A stretch of 64,000 bases of DNA from an archaeon (GTDB lineage: Archaea > SpSt-1190 > DYHY01), in contig JAZDJS010000049.1 in assembly GCA_043803745.1 (NCBI GenBank), forward strand, positions 13,920 through 77,919, in the 5' to 3' direction. This document shows positions 15,026-55,356 of this stretch, piece by piece. The position numbers and the translations under genes were made by a program. The notes beneath the pieces were generated by a model. It ran no database searches and was not told where the DNA came from. It saw nothing but the letters and a program-made list of their open reading frames with translations. Within the stretch, counting starts at the first letter, position 1, and each line of letters begins with the position of its first letter.

Positions 15026-15098
15026 GGGTCCGTGGTCTAGTGGTTATGACGGCGCTCTCACACAGCGCAGGCCGCCGGTTCAATTCCGGCCGGGCCCA
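15026..15098 (+). tRNA. tRNA-Val(CAC)
   Basis: GGGTCCG/CGGGCCC acceptor stem, anticodon arm GCGCT-CTCACAC-AGCGC, T-loop TTCAATT. Confidence 0.96.
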
Positions 15099-15186
15099 CT
15101 TGAACTCAACTTACCGCTTCGCGGATTTATCTTTGAGTTCAAGGACTTTCGCCTTCGCCCTTTTGGGGCTCGGCTCCAGCCACCAT
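15099..15186 (+). repeat. 88-nt hairpin element shared with tRNA-Val(TAC)
   Basis: Matches the reverse complement of 55196-55283 with 1 mismatch; stem CTTGAACTCAA/TTGAGTTCAAG, tail GACTTTCGC...GCTCGG. Confidence 0.92.
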
Positions 15187-15380
15187 GAATCCTACCGGTT
15201 CCCGAACATTAGTGAGGCCCGTGCATTTCAGCACGGGAATTCCGGCCGGGTCCCTCCGACTTCGGCTGGATTGTCTGCAGGCAACTCTGAGGAGGAACTA
15301 CGCACTGCGTGCCTATGCTCGGTCACCCCTCGCTTTCCGTCCGGTTCGTAAGCGCTAGCGAAATCCGTGCCTCAACCGGA
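15187..15380 (+). repeat. Further stacked hairpin units with a tRNA-Val 3'-end copy
   Basis: AATTCCGGCCGGGTCC (15238-15253) with antisense arm CGGCTGGATT; tails ...ATGCTCGG and ...CGAAATCCGTGCCTCAA, the latter also present at 55034-55072 on the minus strand. Confidence 0.7.
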
Positions 15381-17235: not shown

Positions 17236-17814
17236 ATGCCGCAGGCAAATCCGCAAAAGGAACCGTGGGCAAGCGTTAGCGAGGATGGCGGAGTTCTCCG
17301 AGTAAGGCTTCCGGACGCCCTTGAACGGAAATATCTCTCATATGACGAGGGGGATTTCCAGGAGCAGGCTGAAGATGCATTAGCGCTCCTTTCCAAAGGG
17401 CAGGTTGGAAGAATAGTTTACCAGAACGAAGCTCCCGGCGGGGATGACTTGCTAAGGAAGGGCTTTGAAGCAAGCGTCATGGAAGCTGCCATCTACGAGG
17501 AGAAATACGGAAAATTGCTCTCAAGGCTAGGGGCCTATCTTAGACAGGCCGTTTCCCCGGCATTCTGGTCGCTAGTAACTATCGGGGCTGTGGATTTCGG
17601 ATATGACGTTATTCAATCTGACGCTCCAGTCCAGCTCAAGGTAATTGGCGGGGTAACCTCCCTTGTCTTTGGAGGGCTGGCTGCATTCGAGGGCTGGCGC
17701 GGTTTCCAAAGCCTGAAGGAAGCTTTTGAAGCTGACAAAACCGCTACGAGGAACGCCGAACTTGCCATAGAATACCTCGACCTTGCGCAGGATGCCGGTT
17801 CCTATGCGAACTAG
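17236..17814 (+). CDS. Hypothetical membrane protein
   Basis: Open ORF with two C-terminal hydrophobic segments; ATG 17236 follows TTTTAAA. Confidence 0.6.
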   Translation: MPQANPQKEPWASVSEDGGVLRVRLPDALERKYLSYDEGDFQEQAEDALALLSKGQVGRIVYQNEAPGGDDLLRKGFEASVMEAAIYEEKYGKLLSRLGAYLRQAVSPAFWSLVTIGAVDFGYDVIQSDAPVQLKVIGGVTSLVFGGLAAFEGWRGFQSLKEAFEADKTATRNAELAIEYLDLAQDAGSYAN

Positions 17815-17870
17815 CTTTTGGCAAGACAAGGAAACCGGGGAATGAAATCTTTTCATCCGGGGCCTCGGAT

Positions 17871-17884
17871 AACAATATAAACCG
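17871..17884 (+). promoter_or_regulatory. Putative BRE/TATA box of tRNA-iMet
   Basis: AACAATATAAA about 25-30 nt upstream of the tRNA. Confidence 0.55.
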
Positions 17885-17905
17885 CCAAAAGTCCTTTCTT
17901 GCAAC

Positions 17906-17983
17906 AGCGGGGTAGAGTAGCCTGGAGTGCTCGTCGGGCTCATAACCCGAAGATCGGACGTTCAAATCGTTCCCCCGCTACCA
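17906..17983 (+). tRNA. Initiator tRNA-Met(CAT), CCA encoded
   Basis: A1-U72 pair (AGCGGGG/CCCCGCT); three consecutive G-C pairs in the anticodon stem TCGGG-CTCATAA-CCCGA. Confidence 0.96.
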
Positions 17984-18201
17984 TCTTTTTTACCCGCGGG
18001 GGAACTAATTGGGTGGTTCTCCAGCCGCGGCTGGATCCAATCCGCGGATTGGAAAATCCACTCCCCGCTACCATTCTTTCCATTATGCGGGGGAACGAAT
18101 ATTGGTGGTTCTCCGGACTGCAACACGAGTCCGTGCATTGGCACGGAAAATCTCCGTGTGACTGCACACAGACCTCGCCAAGGCTCGGCACTCCCCGCTA
18201 C
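17984..18201 (+). repeat. Two stacked fold-back units at the tRNA-iMet 3' end
   Basis: Each unit has GCGGGGGAAC (antisense to the tRNA 3' end; 17996-18005, 18087-18098), GGTGGTTCTCC, hairpins, then CTCCCCGCTAC(CA) (18061-18073, 18191-18201). Confidence 0.88.
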
Positions 18202-18289
18202 TCTTTAATCTACGGTTATTTCAGAGGTTTCTTGCTTGATAACTAGTTCGCAAATTCAATTCCTGTAAGAGCATATACTTTTAGTTCTG

Positions 18290-19150
18290 TTATCTCTTGA
18301 GCAATCCAAAGGAACCCAATATTTCCCGTATGGCGTTAAGGGTTCTCCCATCATCTTTGGTCGGGTTGTATTCTGAAACACTGAATCCAATGAGTTCATA
18401 TCTTCTCAACAAGCCCGTTAGCAGTTTAGTTGACTCTTCAACACTCAAGCCCTCCGGAACGGGCATAGCCGCAGAAGGGCTTTCTTTCGGATCGAGTACG
18501 TCAACATCGAAATGGATGAACGCTTTTTTCACCTTGGAAATCTTTGGATCCTTACCAATCGTCTCGAAAAATCTATCCACCCCGCCGACAGAAATCTCAT
18601 CACTTGAGAACTTCAAGATTCCTTGCTTCCTTATGAAAAGCGTTTCAGGGGCGTCGAGGTCTCTTGTTCCGACCAGGACAAGTTTATCATTGGTTATTGA
18701 TTTTTTCTTCTTTGATACCGCCACCAGGCGTTTGTCGCCATATCCCAATGCAATTGCCAAAGGCATCCCGTGAACGGTTCCGCTTGGCGAACTCTTTGGA
18801 GTGTTTATGTCTCCGTGAGAATCGAACCAGAATGCCACAAAATCTTTGTGAACCTCGGCAAGCCCCGCAAGTATGCCGAAAGTGTAACTGTCGTCTCCAG
18901 TTATTACTGCAGGAACCTTGCCTGATTTAGCGGCCCTTTTTACAGATTCTTTAGTCTTCTTTGATACTTCCAGGCATTCCGACAAATATTTCACCTTGCC
19001 TCCGGCATTCGTTGGATTTCCCTGTGGAACGGCAATCCACTCTGCATCTGCCGAGAGGTTGAATGATTCCAAAATTTTCTTCGGTCCCGCTTCAACGCCA
19101 TCCTTGTGTGCTCCGCCAAACCACGCAGGAACCGCTATTATCTTGAACAT
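18290..19150 (-). CDS. Arginase/ureohydrolase family protein
   Basis: DSHGDINTP..SPSG.VHGMP, HFDVDVLDP and SEYNP motifs. The usual GGDHS reads TGDDS, so one Mn-ligand His is replaced. Confidence 0.88.
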   Translation of the reverse strand: MFKIIAVPAWFGGAHKDGVEAGPKKILESFNLSADAEWIAVPQGNPTNAGGKVKYLSECLEVSKKTKESVKRAAKSGKVPAVITGDDSYTFGILAGLAEVHKDFVAFWFDSHGDINTPKSSPSGTVHGMPLAIALGYGDKRLVAVSKKKKSITNDKLVLVGTRDLDAPETLFIRKQGILKFSSDEISVGGVDRFFETIGKDPKISKVKKAFIHFDVDVLDPKESPSAAMPVPEGLSVEESTKLLTGLLRRYELIGFSVSEYNPTKDDGRTLNAIREILGSFGLLKR

Positions 19151-19196: not shown

Positions 19197-19535
19197 TTAA
19201 TACTTGAACCTCTTCTCGTAATCCTTGTGGCAGAACCATTCGAGTATGACGCTCAGAATCATCACCGCGTTCTCTTTGATGGTGTAGATAAGACGCCAGC
19301 CGTTGGGAAGGTCGTATTTCCATAGGTTCGTCAGTGCGTATTGCTTGTACTCCTTCGGCCACAGCTTCTTGGGCATCTTTATTCCGCAGGAAGCGTCCTT
19401 CTTGAGGTCGGAGATCGCCCTGTTGATGAATCCGTAGAGGGCCTTGTCCTCGAACTTGCCGGCATTCAGCTCTTCAAAGTCGCTTTCTAGCTTTCTTGAA
19501 GCGAATGCTACGGCAAGTTGCTTGTCCGGACTCAT
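19197..19535 (-). CDS. RelE/ParE-like toxin
   Basis: NLWKYDLPNGWRLIYTI...HKDYEKRFKY; coupled to a small upstream gene. Confidence 0.7.
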   Translation of the reverse strand: MSPDKQLAVAFASRKLESDFEELNAGKFEDKALYGFINRAISDLKKDASCGIKMPKKLWPKEYKQYALTNLWKYDLPNGWRLIYTIKENAVMILSVILEWFCHKDYEKRFKY

Positions 19536-19819
19536 CTCAGCTTCACGCCTTGGGCGAGGATCTTCCGTATTCCTTCGGGGTCGTATGTCCAGATGACAGT
19601 TCCGTCCTTGTCTATCAGTATCTTACCAGAAGACTCCAGGTAATCTAGTATCACCTGAAAAACCTGATACATCATCTTCTTGGGAAGCCTCTTCCACAGC
19701 TGGTATTTGCCGTATTCCTGGCTATATTTCTGTATTGTTCTCTCCACCATTATCACAGATTCAAGGGTCGGATTGTAGGCAAGCTGGACTTGCATTTGCT
19801 TCGTTGTCGTCTTAATCAC
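19532..19819 (-). CDS. Putative antitoxin (winged-helix-like)
   Basis: PTLESVIMVE...LWKRLPKKMMYQ...ILDYLESSGKI; overlaps the toxin start by 4 nt. Confidence 0.6.
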   Translation of the reverse strand: MIKTTTKQMQVQLAYNPTLESVIMVERTIQKYSQEYGKYQLWKRLPKKMMYQVFQVILDYLESSGKILIDKDGTVIWTYDPEGIRKILAQGVKLR

Positions 19820-20058: not shown

Positions 20059-20982
20059 ATGGCGTTCATCAGAAGAAAAACAAAGGGTCTTGCGACATAT
20101 TACGAACTCGTGGAATCTACGCGAGTTGGCAAAACAGTCAAGCAAAAGGTCCTCAAGTATTTCAAAAACTGGGACGCAATGCTCAAATACGCAAAGGAAA
20201 CTGGGGTTTCCGTCCCAAAGGAAGGCGCAAGCGAACCGCTTGACAAGAGAACGGCTGAAGAACTCGAGCTGCTGCTGAAAAAACTGGAGAGCCTTCGCCC
20301 CCTGCCACTAAACACCGTCGAAAGCCTCAGAAAAAAGCTCGAAGTTGAGCTAACATACAACTCTAACGCAATAGAGGGCAATCGCTTGTCGTTGAAGGAG
20401 ACTTTTCTTGTCCTTGAACGCGGAATGACCATCGGCGGCCGCTCTGTGAGAGAACACCTCGAGGCGACGAATCACAGGGACGCTCTGGTATCCTTGGAAA
20501 CGCTTCTGAAGAAAAAACGGATAAGCGAAAAAGACATTCTCAGTCTTCACGCACTGATACTCGACAAGATCAGTCCGTTTGATGCTGAGCTTTACCGAAC
20601 GGAACGGGTATACATTACGGGTTCAGGGCACATTCCGCCCAGTTGGAAGGAAATACCTCAGCTCGTCGATGAACAGATCGTTTCCAAAATTAATTCCAAC
20701 AGAAGGGGGCATTTTGCGATTGAGATAGGCGCAAAGGTCCAGCATTCTTTAACCTGGATACATCCTTTTGCGGATGGGAACGGGCGGATTGCAAGACTCC
20801 TCACAAACTTGGTCCTTATGCGAGCGGGTTTTCCGCCGATAATTCTTGAGAAGCGAACAAGGAAAACCTATTATCGGTGCCTTGAACTAGCGGACAAAGG
20901 AAACCTGACGCCGTTTACTCGCCTAATAGCAAGGCAGGCGAAAAAATCGCTGAATCTGTGGATATCTGCCGCAGAAAAATAG
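20059..20982 (+). CDS. Fic family protein (AMPylase)
   Basis: Intact HPFADGNGRIAR motif and inhibitory-helix motif SNAIEGN. Confidence 0.93.
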   Translation: MAFIRRKTKGLATYYELVESTRVGKTVKQKVLKYFKNWDAMLKYAKETGVSVPKEGASEPLDKRTAEELELLLKKLESLRPLPLNTVESLRKKLEVELTYNSNAIEGNRLSLKETFLVLERGMTIGGRSVREHLEATNHRDALVSLETLLKKKRISEKDILSLHALILDKISPFDAELYRTERVYITGSGHIPPSWKEIPQLVDEQIVSKINSNRRGHFAIEIGAKVQHSLTWIHPFADGNGRIARLLTNLVLMRAGFPPIILEKRTRKTYYRCLELADKGNLTPFTRLIARQAKKSLNLWISAAEK

Positions 20983-21033
20983 AGTGGCCTGGCGTGCTCG
21001 TCGGGCTCGTGAGAACCCGACGATCGGCGGTTC
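20980..21033 (+). pseudogene. Degenerate internal fragment of tRNA-iMet
   Basis: TAGAGTGGCCTGGCGTGCTCGTCGGGCTCGTGAGAACCCGACGATCGGCGGTTC aligns to 17913-17963; anticodon loop altered, no acceptor stem. Confidence 0.85.
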
Positions 21034-21265
21034 TCCGTTCCACATGAAAGGTTTCCTCTGTAGGGACTCAACGCACATCACACGGAAATATCGCCAAATA
21101 TGCCGCAGGACGGATAGGAAGACCGAAAATTTGCGCGGGTCATTCTGCCTAAGTTTTTCGAGCGCGCTTGGGGTGAAGCAACCTCAGGCAACTGACCGTC
21201 GGCAAAATTCAGTACCTCTCAAAAGAGGTCATTTTATATAGCTAGATTTCATTCCGACACTTCGC

Positions 21266-36335: not shown

Positions 36336-37538
36336 TCAACGGCTCACCAGCACGCTTATTGTTTTCGTAAGCGGTTTGTTCGAGCCTCCCGGCTCAAGGG
36401 TCACGTCAACCTTGTATTTTCCGGGCAGCGCGGGAACTTTGAGCTTGTACTCGATCTGGCCGCTCTGCTGGGTCGTTGTCTCATACCGTACCCCGTCTAT
36501 CACTATGATCACCCGGCCGCCCAAGACGGGGGTGCCGTCCGCGAAGAAGGCGGATCCCTGCAGCGTGTAGAACGCGGCAGGCCTCGTCTGGGTTTCGGAT
36601 TCGTTTATGTCGAGGAGGAGCGCCTGCGGCGGAAGAGCGACCATGAAAATCGCGACCCCGATAAGAAGCATTATCGCGGCGTGCTTTATTCCGGCGACGA
36701 CCCTTCCCTCGCCAAGCTGCCCGGCAAGAAGCCCGTTGAAAACGGCCTGGATTATCACCATTGAGAAGAACATCTTCCGGTAGTAGGACGGCCCGAACTG
36801 GGAGGACGTTCCCCCGCCGCTTCCGAAAAGCCCGCCTCCTCCTGCGGAAAGATTCATCGCGAAAAGGGGTCCCAAAATCTTCTGGAGGACTATGACCATC
36901 CCCAGGAAGATGAAGAAAATCACATACATCACGAGGACCTGCTGAGCCAGCTTGTTCTGCCTATCCGCCTCAAGATCCTTTACGAGCACGGCATTGCTTG
37001 CAACCGAGGACATTGCCTCCGCGATGTCTCCGCCGGATTCGAAGGCTTCCATCACGACGGTAACAGTGTGCTTGATGAAATCGGAGCGGCTCATCCGGTC
37101 CTCGAACATCCGGATTACCTTCGGGAACGGGACGCCCCAGGAAAGCTGGGCGGACATCTTCTGTATTTCCGGAGAGAGGGCGCCATAGTCGACGTCCCTT
37201 GCCTGGAGTATTGCATCGATAAGGGTTATCCCCGATTTCTGGGCTTCCGCAAGGGAACGGAGAAAGTCCGGGAACTTGTCCTCGATTGCCTTTGTCCGCT
37301 TGTAATCATAGTACTGGTAGAAAAGATGCGGCGCCGCGCCGATTCCGAACACGAACGGAAGGTACTGGACCGATGTCGGGACATCGAAGCCGTTGATGTA
37401 AAAGTCGATGAACAGCAGGGCGATTGCAAGGACCCCGGAGAAATACATCACCTTGTGCTTTGTATCGGTTACCCTGCCGAGGACTATTTGGAGGTCGCTT
37501 GGCTTCTTAATTCTCGCTTCGTCTTCGGTTTTTTCCAT
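36336..37538 (-). CDS. Type II/IV secretion F-family (TadC/ArlJ-like) membrane platform with C-terminal Ig-like domain
   Basis: FPDFLRSLAEAQKSG, DYGALSPEI..M...LSWG, ESGGDI and GLLAGQL..G...AGIKH motifs. Confidence 0.9.
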   Translation of the reverse strand: MEKTEDEARIKKPSDLQIVLGRVTDTKHKVMYFSGVLAIALLFIDFYINGFDVPTSVQYLPFVFGIGAAPHLFYQYYDYKRTKAIEDKFPDFLRSLAEAQKSGITLIDAILQARDVDYGALSPEIQKMSAQLSWGVPFPKVIRMFEDRMSRSDFIKHTVTVVMEAFESGGDIAEAMSSVASNAVLVKDLEADRQNKLAQQVLVMYVIFFIFLGMVIVLQKILGPLFAMNLSAGGGGLFGSGGGTSSQFGPSYYRKMFFSMVIIQAVFNGLLAGQLGEGRVVAGIKHAAIMLLIGVAIFMVALPPQALLLDINESETQTRPAAFYTLQGSAFFADGTPVLGGRVIIVIDGVRYETTTQQSGQIEYKLKVPALPGKYKVDVTLEPGGSNKPLTKTISVLVSR

Positions 37539-55025: not shown

Positions 55026-55283
55026 GCGAGGCCGTCCGGCTGAGGCACGGATTTCGTTAATGCTCAAGAACCTGCTTGAAGACTACGCGCGTTCTTTACG
55101 CCCGTCAACGGATTTTTCTTTCAAGAAAACTGGGTTGTAGTGGGCCCGGCCGGCTGAGGCGTAGCAACCGAAGTCGGAGGGAACAGGCCGGAATGATGGT
55201 GGCTGGAGCCGAGCCCCAAAAGGGCGAAGGCGAAAGTCCTTGAACTCAAAGACAAATCCGCGAAGCGGTAAGTTGAGTTCAAG
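55026..55283 (-). repeat. Stacked units downstream of tRNA-Val(TAC), including the shared 88-nt element
   Basis: 88-nt element at 55196-55283; GCCTCAG|CCGGCCGGGCCCACT (tRNA 3' copy at 55139-55153); GCCTCAG|CCGGACGG at about 55032-55046. Confidence 0.85.
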
Positions 55284-55356
55284 TGGGCCCGGCCGGAATT
55301 GAACCGGCGGCCTGCGCAGTGTAAGTGCGCCGTCATAACCACTAGACCACGGACCC
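55284..55356 (-). tRNA. tRNA-Val(TAC)
   Basis: Same body as tRNA-Val(CAC); anticodon arm GCGCA-CTTACAC-TGCGC. Confidence 0.96.

Follow-up and report, generated by a model that had tools for sequence, protein, structure and literature searches.

In the Micrarchaeota-like lineage considered here, tRNA genes are wrapped in arrays composed of fragments of their own ends and of small hairpin modules, a finding wider than that of the preliminary description, which dealt with a single array at the 3' side of an initiator tRNA-Met gene. This array is not peculiar to tRNA-iMet, being one case among more than 20 in the genome. In the best reading, these cases represent a lineage-wide class of loci in which a working tRNA gene carries copies of its own 3' tail downstream, copies of its own 5' head upstream, and hairpin modules on the gene-facing side. 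The preferred explanation of the units, with about an even chance of being the correct one, is that tRNA-derived fragments, together with small hairpin modules, accumulate at the DNA level into an accretion array, which would grow at its tRNA-proximal end and would presumably be devoid of function. The window, i.e., the whole analysed stretch of 64,000 nucleotides, is part of contig C49 of a Micrarchaeota-like genome (G000; 1.23 Mb, 51 contigs, 90% complete).

The initiator tRNA-Met locus

The tRNA-Met gene of the window (Table 1) has the ends AGCGGGG (5') and CCCCGCU-ACCA (3'), which we take to be the archaeal initiator form. It is 100% identical over 78 nt to its counterpart in the same-genus genome G001, and an identical gene is present in the metagenome contig L270. 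The TATA-like box in front of it presumably represents an archaeal promoter element, judging by general knowledge of such elements. Archaeal transcription stops at T runs, and the one in the trailer of the gene is terminator-like.

The four genes located between the array and a distant fragment of an initiator tRNA gene are typical of islands, and the segment 18290-20982 may belong to one. The fragment itself lacks the first 7 bases, carries 3 extra bases in the anticodon loop and ends abruptly in the T loop. On its 3' side, positions 21075-21135 resemble, as homologs, a unit of the relative G003 and the 3' part of the distal unit of L270.

Table 1. Features of the initiator tRNA-Met locus and its surroundings, in window positions
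Feature	Positions	Strand	Basis or remark
TATA-like box, ~25 nt 5' of the tRNA-Met start	17874-17881	+	read from sequence
Initiator tRNA-Met (CAT) gene, encoded CCA, T stem GGACG/CGTTC	17906-17983	+	ARAGORN; Rfam tRNA, 56.6 bits
Unit 1 (whole)	17984-18073		3' of tRNA-Met
tRNA-Met trailer, six-T run, terminator-like	17984-17995	+	read from sequence, directly 3' of the encoded CCA
Unit 1 arm, 11/12 complementary to tRNA tail 17967-17978	17996-18007	+	inverted-pair search
Unit 1 copy of T-stem 5' strand + TTC, of the GGTGG type seen in initiator tRNAs of relatives	18012-18019	+	direct repeat, comparison with relatives
Unit 1, two perfect hairpins (18020-18035, 18036-18053) within the T loop of the copy	18020-18053	+	inverted pairs, folding
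Tail copy 1: T-loop end, T-stem 3' strand CCACT, acceptor 3' strand, ACCA	18054-18073	+	26 nt, 77% to the tRNA tail
Unit 2 (whole)	18074-18204		3' of tRNA-Met
Unit 2 trailer, homologous to the trailer right behind the tRNA in L270	18074-18086	+	alignment with L270
Unit 2 arm GCGGGGGAACGA, 12/12 complement of tRNA tail 17967-17978	18087-18098	+	inverted pair; identical in L270
Unit 2 T-stem 5' strand + TTC, two hairpins, then GGAAAATC (18145-18152)	18104-18152	+	direct repeat, folding, alignment
36-nt nested insertion at the boundary of T-loop end and T-stem 3' strand of unit 2	18153-18188	+	alignment gap
Tail copy 2: CACT + acceptor 3' strand + AC	18189-18201	+	13/13 identical to 18059-18071
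Arginase-family gene	18290-19150	-	between array and tRNA fragment
YoeB-like ORF	19197-19535	-	22.8 bits, under the Pfam cut-off of 27
95-aa upstream partner of the YoeB-like ORF, without family	19532-19819	-	between array and tRNA fragment
Fic-domain gene	20059-20982	+	between array and tRNA fragment
Initiator tRNA gene fragment, positions 8-58, 83% identity	20980-21033	+	directly behind the Fic gene stop

Anatomy of the two units

Both units display the same order of parts, namely trailer, arm, short linker, GGTGG + TTC, two hairpins, AAAAT + CCACT, the acceptor 3' strand and a terminal ACCA or ACTC. All the strings named in the preliminary description were found where it had placed them, including the ACCA closing unit 1 (18070-18073); the closing bases of unit 2 are ACTC. 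Complementarity of the unit 1 arm extends further, over 17996-18011, at 88% across 16 nt. The 36-nt insertion nested in unit 2 holds RGAYYTC and, abutting the tail, YTCRR, i.e., the marker pair of the commonest unit type of the genome (see below).

Three strings are common to the two units: GGTGGTTCTCC (18012-18022 and 18104-18114), GGAAAATC (18046-18053 in unit 1, with its unit 2 position in Table 1) and CACTCCCCGCTAC (18059-18071 and 18189-18201). The two shared motifs of the preliminary description are not new signals; they turned out to be T-arm parts of the initiator tRNA of relatives. One of them, GGTGGTTC, corresponds to the T-stem 5' strand with TTC, and the other, AAAATCCACT, to what is left of the T loop with the 3' strand of the T stem, as it occurs in the real initiator tRNA of the relatives G002 and G003. 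The two motifs are, as read from their bases, the halves of one T arm separated by the inserted hairpins. The resident tRNA has the T stem GGACG/CGTTC, whereas the units have GGTGG/CCACT, the stem of the real initiator tRNAs of G002 and G003. Since the T-arm motifs of the units match these tRNAs, the units are tRNA-derived fragments, not independent mimics.

The suggestion that the units fold as multi-arm tRNA mimics is not supported by the tRNA models either, none of which accepted them. In this stretch, ARAGORN calls only 17906-17983, and a search of Rfam with E up to 10 over 17700-18400 returned only the tRNA and one chance match, so canonical tRNA gene status of the units is rejected. The interrupted copies in the units lack the D and anticodon arms. 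For this reason, and since the bulge-helix-bulge motif was not seen (in an inspection by eye only), they were not accepted as archaeal bulge-helix-bulge tRNA introns, T-loop introns included. The sole ORFs covering the units also overlap the tRNA, and the units are too short to code. Each unit is best read as a probable truncated, non-coding "top half" copy of the initiator tRNA gene, with the arm likely corresponding to the acceptor 5' strand continuing as a complement of the T-stem 3' strand.

A functional RNA reading seems quite improbable. According to it, transcripts of the unit would adopt an acceptor-plus-T-arm minihelix, with GCGGGG/CCCCGC as its closing stem, which acts as a processing signal or decoy for RNase P, tRNase Z or the CCA-adding enzyme, or else its arm pairs with the tRNA tail. 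Indeed, both units close with an acceptor-like stem of 6-7 bp, unit 1 has the ACCA end, and + strand folding beats that of shuffled sequences (z -3.0 for unit 1 and -4.25 for unit 2, 0/200 shuffles each). Two stem positions hold G-U pairs, which speaks for the + strand, and L270 has retained the arm. The pairing of the second hairpin is kept via changes on both sides at 3/7 pairs in 3 sequences; such pairing retained through double changes in the iMet-type hairpin could also reflect selection on structure, which counts against accretion. At the same time, unit 1 folds equally well on the - strand and, among the 44 units of G000 and G001, the - strand gives the better fold in 33 and the + strand in 10, i.e., there is no plus-strand bias. 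Moreover, a T run separates the tRNA from unit 1, no promoter-like box was seen 5' of the units, Rfam revealed no RNA family besides those mentioned, and unit 2 does not end in ACCA. Furthermore, G001 is without units, and two contigs from other runs with the identical tRNA diverge right after it.

The arm and its match to the tRNA tail

The claim that the arm of unit 2 is a perfect 12-nt complement of 17967-17978 was confirmed (12/12). The preliminary description had also expected this antisense arm to be conserved, and it is kept 12/12 in the independent metagenome contig L270. Allowing for up to one mismatch, the arm 12-mer occurs 4 times in the window versus 0.71 expected, a number reached by 1/100 shuffles; the fourth match, at 36806, is inside a coding sequence and looks like chance. 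An exact inverted tail match of at least 10 nt downstream is present at 1/38 tRNA genes of G000, namely at the tRNA-Met of the window. A chance origin of the arm match is excluded.

In units 1 and 2 of the window and in unit 1 of L270, the arm matches the preceding tail, not the tail of its own unit. The arm of the second, distal unit of L270 is the complement of the CCACT-type tail before it, and the rule "arm equals complement of the preceding tail" fits this unit as well. Across lineages, the arm varies with the T-stem sequence, e.g., at the initiator tRNA of G009, at Thr-GGU in G000 and at Thr-UGU in G001. A universal anti-tail arm was rejected, the stringent arm being present in only ~10/85 such units. 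Two other candidates failed as well. A reverse-transcription stop at the T loop as the end of the arm was dropped, since other arms extend across this loop; a - strand guide RNA of the box C/D type was dropped too, for want of a C box and because the iMet units show only a degenerate candidate for the D box.

The arm might be viewed as a guide, which would pair with the tRNA tail and direct the next unit to the site beside the tRNA via an RNA- or DNA-guided recombinase, as in bridge-RNA, CRISPR or integron systems. Its correspondence with the preceding tail and its variation with the T stem are in line with this idea, as is the plausible proximal position of the newest unit. Still, we regard the guide as very improbable. 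The stringent arm is confined to the small share of units given above, and the commonest unit type has only the generic T-loop complement. The match could also result incidentally from correction inside an inverted repeat, and no gene of the IS110, Cas1, tyrosine recombinase, Y1 or reverse-transcriptase kind was found in G000 (see below).

Repeated tRNA ends across the genome

The genome-wide survey took the last 20 nt of each tRNA gene (CCA removed) and searched the 300 nt on either side for exact repeats with a minimum length of 10 nt. In G000, a tail repeat was found downstream of 22/38 tRNA genes and, as a control, upstream of 0/38. The 5' head is repeated upstream of 11 of the 38 genes and downstream of none (control, 0/38), and the middle thirds of the genes recur in either flank in 0-1/38 cases. 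The head copies are situated 90-210 nt upstream, where each has its own TATA-like box, followed by hairpin modules, a second promoter-like box and the full gene. The same tail repeats accompany intron-bearing tRNA genes. Many loci harbor two or three successive units, some of them identical (e.g., at Arg-TCG and Glu-CTC), and the tandem copies are clearly added by host recombination.

A total of 44 units (40 distinct) were collected from G000 and G001. In the commonest type, YTCR(R) abuts a 12-13-nt tail that begins within the T-stem 3' strand (23/40 distinct units vs 1.1 in shuffles). RGAYYTC, the complement of the generic T loop, occurs in 22/40 distinct units vs 1.3 in shuffles. The second type, including the iMet units, comprises the tRNA from around position 46 to its end, with hairpins inserted after TTC. 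The iMet-type unit is found at two sites only in the G000 genome and in three instances altogether, the wider units being too dissimilar among themselves for a covariance model. Unit families are common to different tRNAs, each unit bearing the tail of its own tRNA. The duplicated stretch ranges from ~12 to >50 nt and the units from 40 to 150 nt. Inspected by eye, the interior of the first type looks like a subtype of the second type read in reverse complement.

An array of this kind is also found at both tRNA-Val genes of the window. It occupies ~330 nt downstream of the gene at 15026-15099 (+), with a ~100-nt trailer and then a tail copy at ~15238-15250, and ~300 nt toward lower coordinates from the gene at 55283-55356 (-), with a tail copy at ~55140-55153. 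The ~100-nt trailers of the two genes are nearly identical, and a 5' head copy lies ~113 nt upstream of each gene. According to the ARAGORN calls, CCA is encoded in about one-third of the tRNA genes of G000, the rest being without it, and the tail copies in this genome carry CCA only where the gene encodes it. Several tRNA genes of G000 and G001 touch contig ends.

G000 possesses several small families of palindromic modules. One hairpin motif, with the core CTCTG-MR-GAG, is present in 58 copies; of these, 13 share the strand of a tRNA gene and lie in the 2% of the sequence immediately behind such genes, and 43 lie elsewhere. A strict pattern of one hairpin module gave 28 copies vs 2 in the reversed sequence; as 23 of the 28 are away from tRNA genes, the modules also occur outside tRNA flanks.

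Alternatively, both the units and the tRNA fragment (20980-21033) may be leftovers of older initiator tRNA copies with T-loop insertions (introns or modules), displaced by the continuous gene, with no dedicated mechanism operating today. We consider this reading unlikely. It would account for the self-consistent T arm of the units (GGTGG/CCACT), equal to that of the real initiator tRNA of G002 and G003, and for the fragment, which spans positions 8-58 and is cut short in the T loop. Disrupted tRNA genes with T-loop introns have been reported in Micrarchaeota (PMC3239211), and tRNA fragments scattered by a mobile element in Caldiarchaeum (PMC3293823). However, in the long tRNA genes inspected in G000, G001, G003 and G036, the insertions fall within or close to the anticodon or D region rather than in the T loop, and no bulge-helix-bulge was seen (by eye only) at the hairpin borders. 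The same layout at >20 tRNAs, the identical tandem units and the arms matching the resident tail rather than their own would all stay unexplained.

Relatives and the order of events

The survey samples comprised 4 to 38 tRNA genes per genome, i.e., incomplete sets. Tail repeats of at least 10 nt were found downstream of 13/29 tRNA genes in G001, 11/30 in G003, 10/31 in G004 and 6/11 in G009; the shares were smaller in G005 (4/26), G036 (4/23) and G010 (0/9). The tail-upstream control gave 0 in each relative except G004 (1/31). In the pooled outgroups (G037, G006, G022, G019 and G028), tail repeats were seen at 0/25 tRNA genes. In G039, G018 and G029, the few downstream matches were equalled by upstream matches, as expected for tRNA clusters. 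Head repeats occurred upstream of 4/29 genes in G001, 0/29 in G003 and 1/31 in G004.

The arrays turn over quickly between relatives. The same tRNA often has different unit types or numbers in G000 and G001, and in the latter the identical initiator tRNA is not followed by a unit. The initiator tRNA of G002, G004, G009 and G036 is accompanied by one unrelated insert of 60-180 nt each, ending in the respective tRNA's own tail. In G003, the initiator tRNA is located at the end of one contig (L012 1-72) and a unit-like tail starts another (L023 1-60), which points to the arrays as a likely cause of assembly breaks at tRNA genes; the counts are, hence, lower bounds. In G002, the initiator tRNA (L011 ~222-299) carries A at the position of the acceptor 3' strand expected to pair with C3, and a tail copy 170 nt downstream has the pairing G. 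The gene may be a working copy with a mismatch, or the distal tail may be an older intact version.

Contig L270 bears on the order of the units. The unit directly beside the identical tRNA in this contig shares with unit 2 of the window the trailer start, the 12-nt arm and the tail ending in ..GCTACTC, unlike unit 1 of the window, which ends in ..GCTACCA. The junction of the unit 1 tail and the unit 2 trailer in the window is the same as the junction of the tRNA and the first unit in L270. Since the counterpart of unit 2 adjoins the tRNA in L270, unit 1 of the window is an extra proximal unit. The comparison fits an insertion or exchange within the shared CCCCGCTACCA block; the alternative is that unit 1 was lost in L270. 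The earlier proposal that unit 2 first stood beside the tRNA and was then pushed out by unit 1 is, thus, plausible, and the comparison supports this order of events. The proposed direction of growth has this one relative contig as its basis.

Among the contigs of four DNA runs, one was L270-like, two contigs from two other runs carried the identical tRNA and diverged right after it, and no joints were seen. A degenerate tail pattern retrieved 9 loci from the genome collection, 2 archaeal (one being the G003 contig, the other probably from G002) and 7 bacterial. The 20-mer of the unit tail had 0 matches in viral contigs; a looser arm-to-T-stem pattern gave 89 stretches there, most of them with the spacing of an ordinary T arm.

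Recombinases and known classes of elements

Searches of G000 (90% complete) returned 0 matches for Cas1 (PF01867) and 0 for tyrosine recombinases (PF00589), so that not even an Xer-type enzyme was found there. Likewise, there were 0 matches in G000 for the Y1 transposase (PF01797), the IS110 DEDD transposase (PF01548) and reverse transcriptase. Assemblies of this kind often leave out plasmids and viruses. Of the five genomes of the order searched, only G001 has a tyrosine integrase gene, which encodes 426 aa and starts 70 nt after a tRNA-Cys (contig C12, L311 876-2301). No second piece of tRNA-Cys (any 14-mer, up to one mismatch) was found behind this gene in the 18.6 kb to the contig end.

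As in att duplication, a direct repeat of the tRNA 3' part bounds the insert (26 nt, 77%; 13 nt, 100%). The integrase that such a duplication calls for was not found, with 0 matches to PF00589 in G000 and units too short to code. Membership in CRISPR or integron arrays, with which the preliminary description compared the growth of the array, does not hold, G000 lacking matches to both Cas1 and tyrosine recombinases; the analogy is valid only for the direction of growth. In addition, the exact repeats measure 11-13 nt vs the 23-50 nt needed for a CRISPR array and the interiors share motifs, and, as to integron cassettes, the only ORFs over the units run into the tRNA. The absence of PF01548 and PF01797 matches from G000 likewise led to the rejection of an IS110-type bridge-RNA element and an IS200/IS605-derived hairpin element, respectively. 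A casposon-like fixed target duplication was discarded in view of the lack of Cas1 matches and the varying duplicated length. When compared with MITEs, the iMet-type unit occurs only twice in G000, the module motifs are present in 22-23/40 units, and the duplicated length is variable.

Accretion as the proposed explanation

Accretion would proceed by repeated recombination or insertion inside the conserved T-loop and tail region (and the D-loop region) of the tRNA gene, where the survivors would be only the events leaving one intact gene. If this is the case, each new event would take place in the working copy, and older fragments would be displaced outward. In the window, unit 2 would be the older and unit 1 the newer, the latter having entered by exchange within the CCCCGCTACCA block; template switching in the tail-loop-arm inverted repeat could maintain the match between the arm and the resident tail. 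The restriction of heads to the upstream side and of tails to the downstream side, the position of the modules on the inner side and the fast turnover are as expected if the events strike the working gene near the D or T loop. Classical integration is hard to square with >20 different tRNAs because it needs one matching element per tRNA.

Certain observations go against accretion, among them the absence of any match to the enzymes searched for in G000 and the poor fit of classical integration. Units of 40-150 nt, with hairpins placed precisely within the T loop, are not accounted for by simple deletion of kb-size elements. Had the copies come from simple tandem duplication, their flanks should be homologous, as was seen at the Pro-CGG and Gln-UUG loci but not at the Ala-GGC head.

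A bolder view, which we hold to be distinctly unlikely, is that of a gene-less insertion homing to tRNA genes in the DPANN of this lineage. The hairpin modules would enter the D- and T-loop boxes, only events re-creating the gene end would survive, nested layers of heads and tails would build up, and the arm would guide the next event; the arrays would then offer a live view of the process behind intron-rich and split tRNA genes.

Relation to known systems and implications

Like the arrays described here, CRISPR and integron arrays have boundary sequences that repeat, interiors that vary and, possibly, one growing end. The present arrays differ in that there is no Cas1 and no integron-type integrase, the identical repeat bases number only 11-13, and the interiors represent shared module families, not captured foreign DNA.

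Partial tRNA copies arise from integration in Archaea, with repeats of ~44 bp flanking 9-23 kb (PMC9897764). Similarly to those copies, the tRNA 3' part is directly repeated downstream of an intact gene; the repeats of the present arrays, however, are 11-26 nt long, flank tens of bases and form arrays. Tandem accretion at tRNA genes follows the same logic in genomic islands and in the tycheposons of Prochlorococcus, where newly arriving elements displace older ones away from the tRNA (bioRxiv 10.1101/2020.12.28.424599). Those elements are kb-sized, come with an integrase and cargo, and are limited to a few tRNAs, in contrast to the gene-less units of 40-150 nt at more than half of the tRNA genes, with 5' heads upstream too and no integrase found in G000.

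In Micrarchaeota, 56% of tRNA genes are reported as disrupted, T-loop introns were placed at 53/54 and 59/60, and a splicing endonuclease of broad specificity was described (PMC3239211). The organism of that report, Ca. Micrarchaeum acidiphilum ARMAN-2, belongs to the same phylum-level lineage and shares T-loop insertions with the genome studied here. In ARMAN-2, working genes carry the insertions as introns bordered by bulge-helix-bulge motifs, whereas here they reside in truncated copies beside an uninterrupted gene. In Caldiarchaeum subterraneum, the scattering of tRNA fragments by a mobile element concerned one locus with a 1.8-kb recombinase-bearing insert (PMC3293823). The location of a 5' tRNA fragment kilobases from the full gene is alike in both (cf. 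20980-21033), but the one-locus case differs from the genome-wide pattern of miniature units. Full-text searches of a literature library, at the level of listings and abstracts, gave no description of short tail-repeat arrays behind most Micrarchaeota or DPANN tRNA genes.

In practical terms, the arrays can pass for tRNA-like genes or att sites. The broader question to which they pertain is the origin of interrupted, split and permuted tRNA genes in Archaea and the role of mobile DNA in it, which is still open. With their breakpoints at the two most conserved boxes of the tRNA and their fast turnover, the arrays render this question testable by the comparison of strains and the mapping of RNA ends, and they may show how tRNA genes get disrupted.
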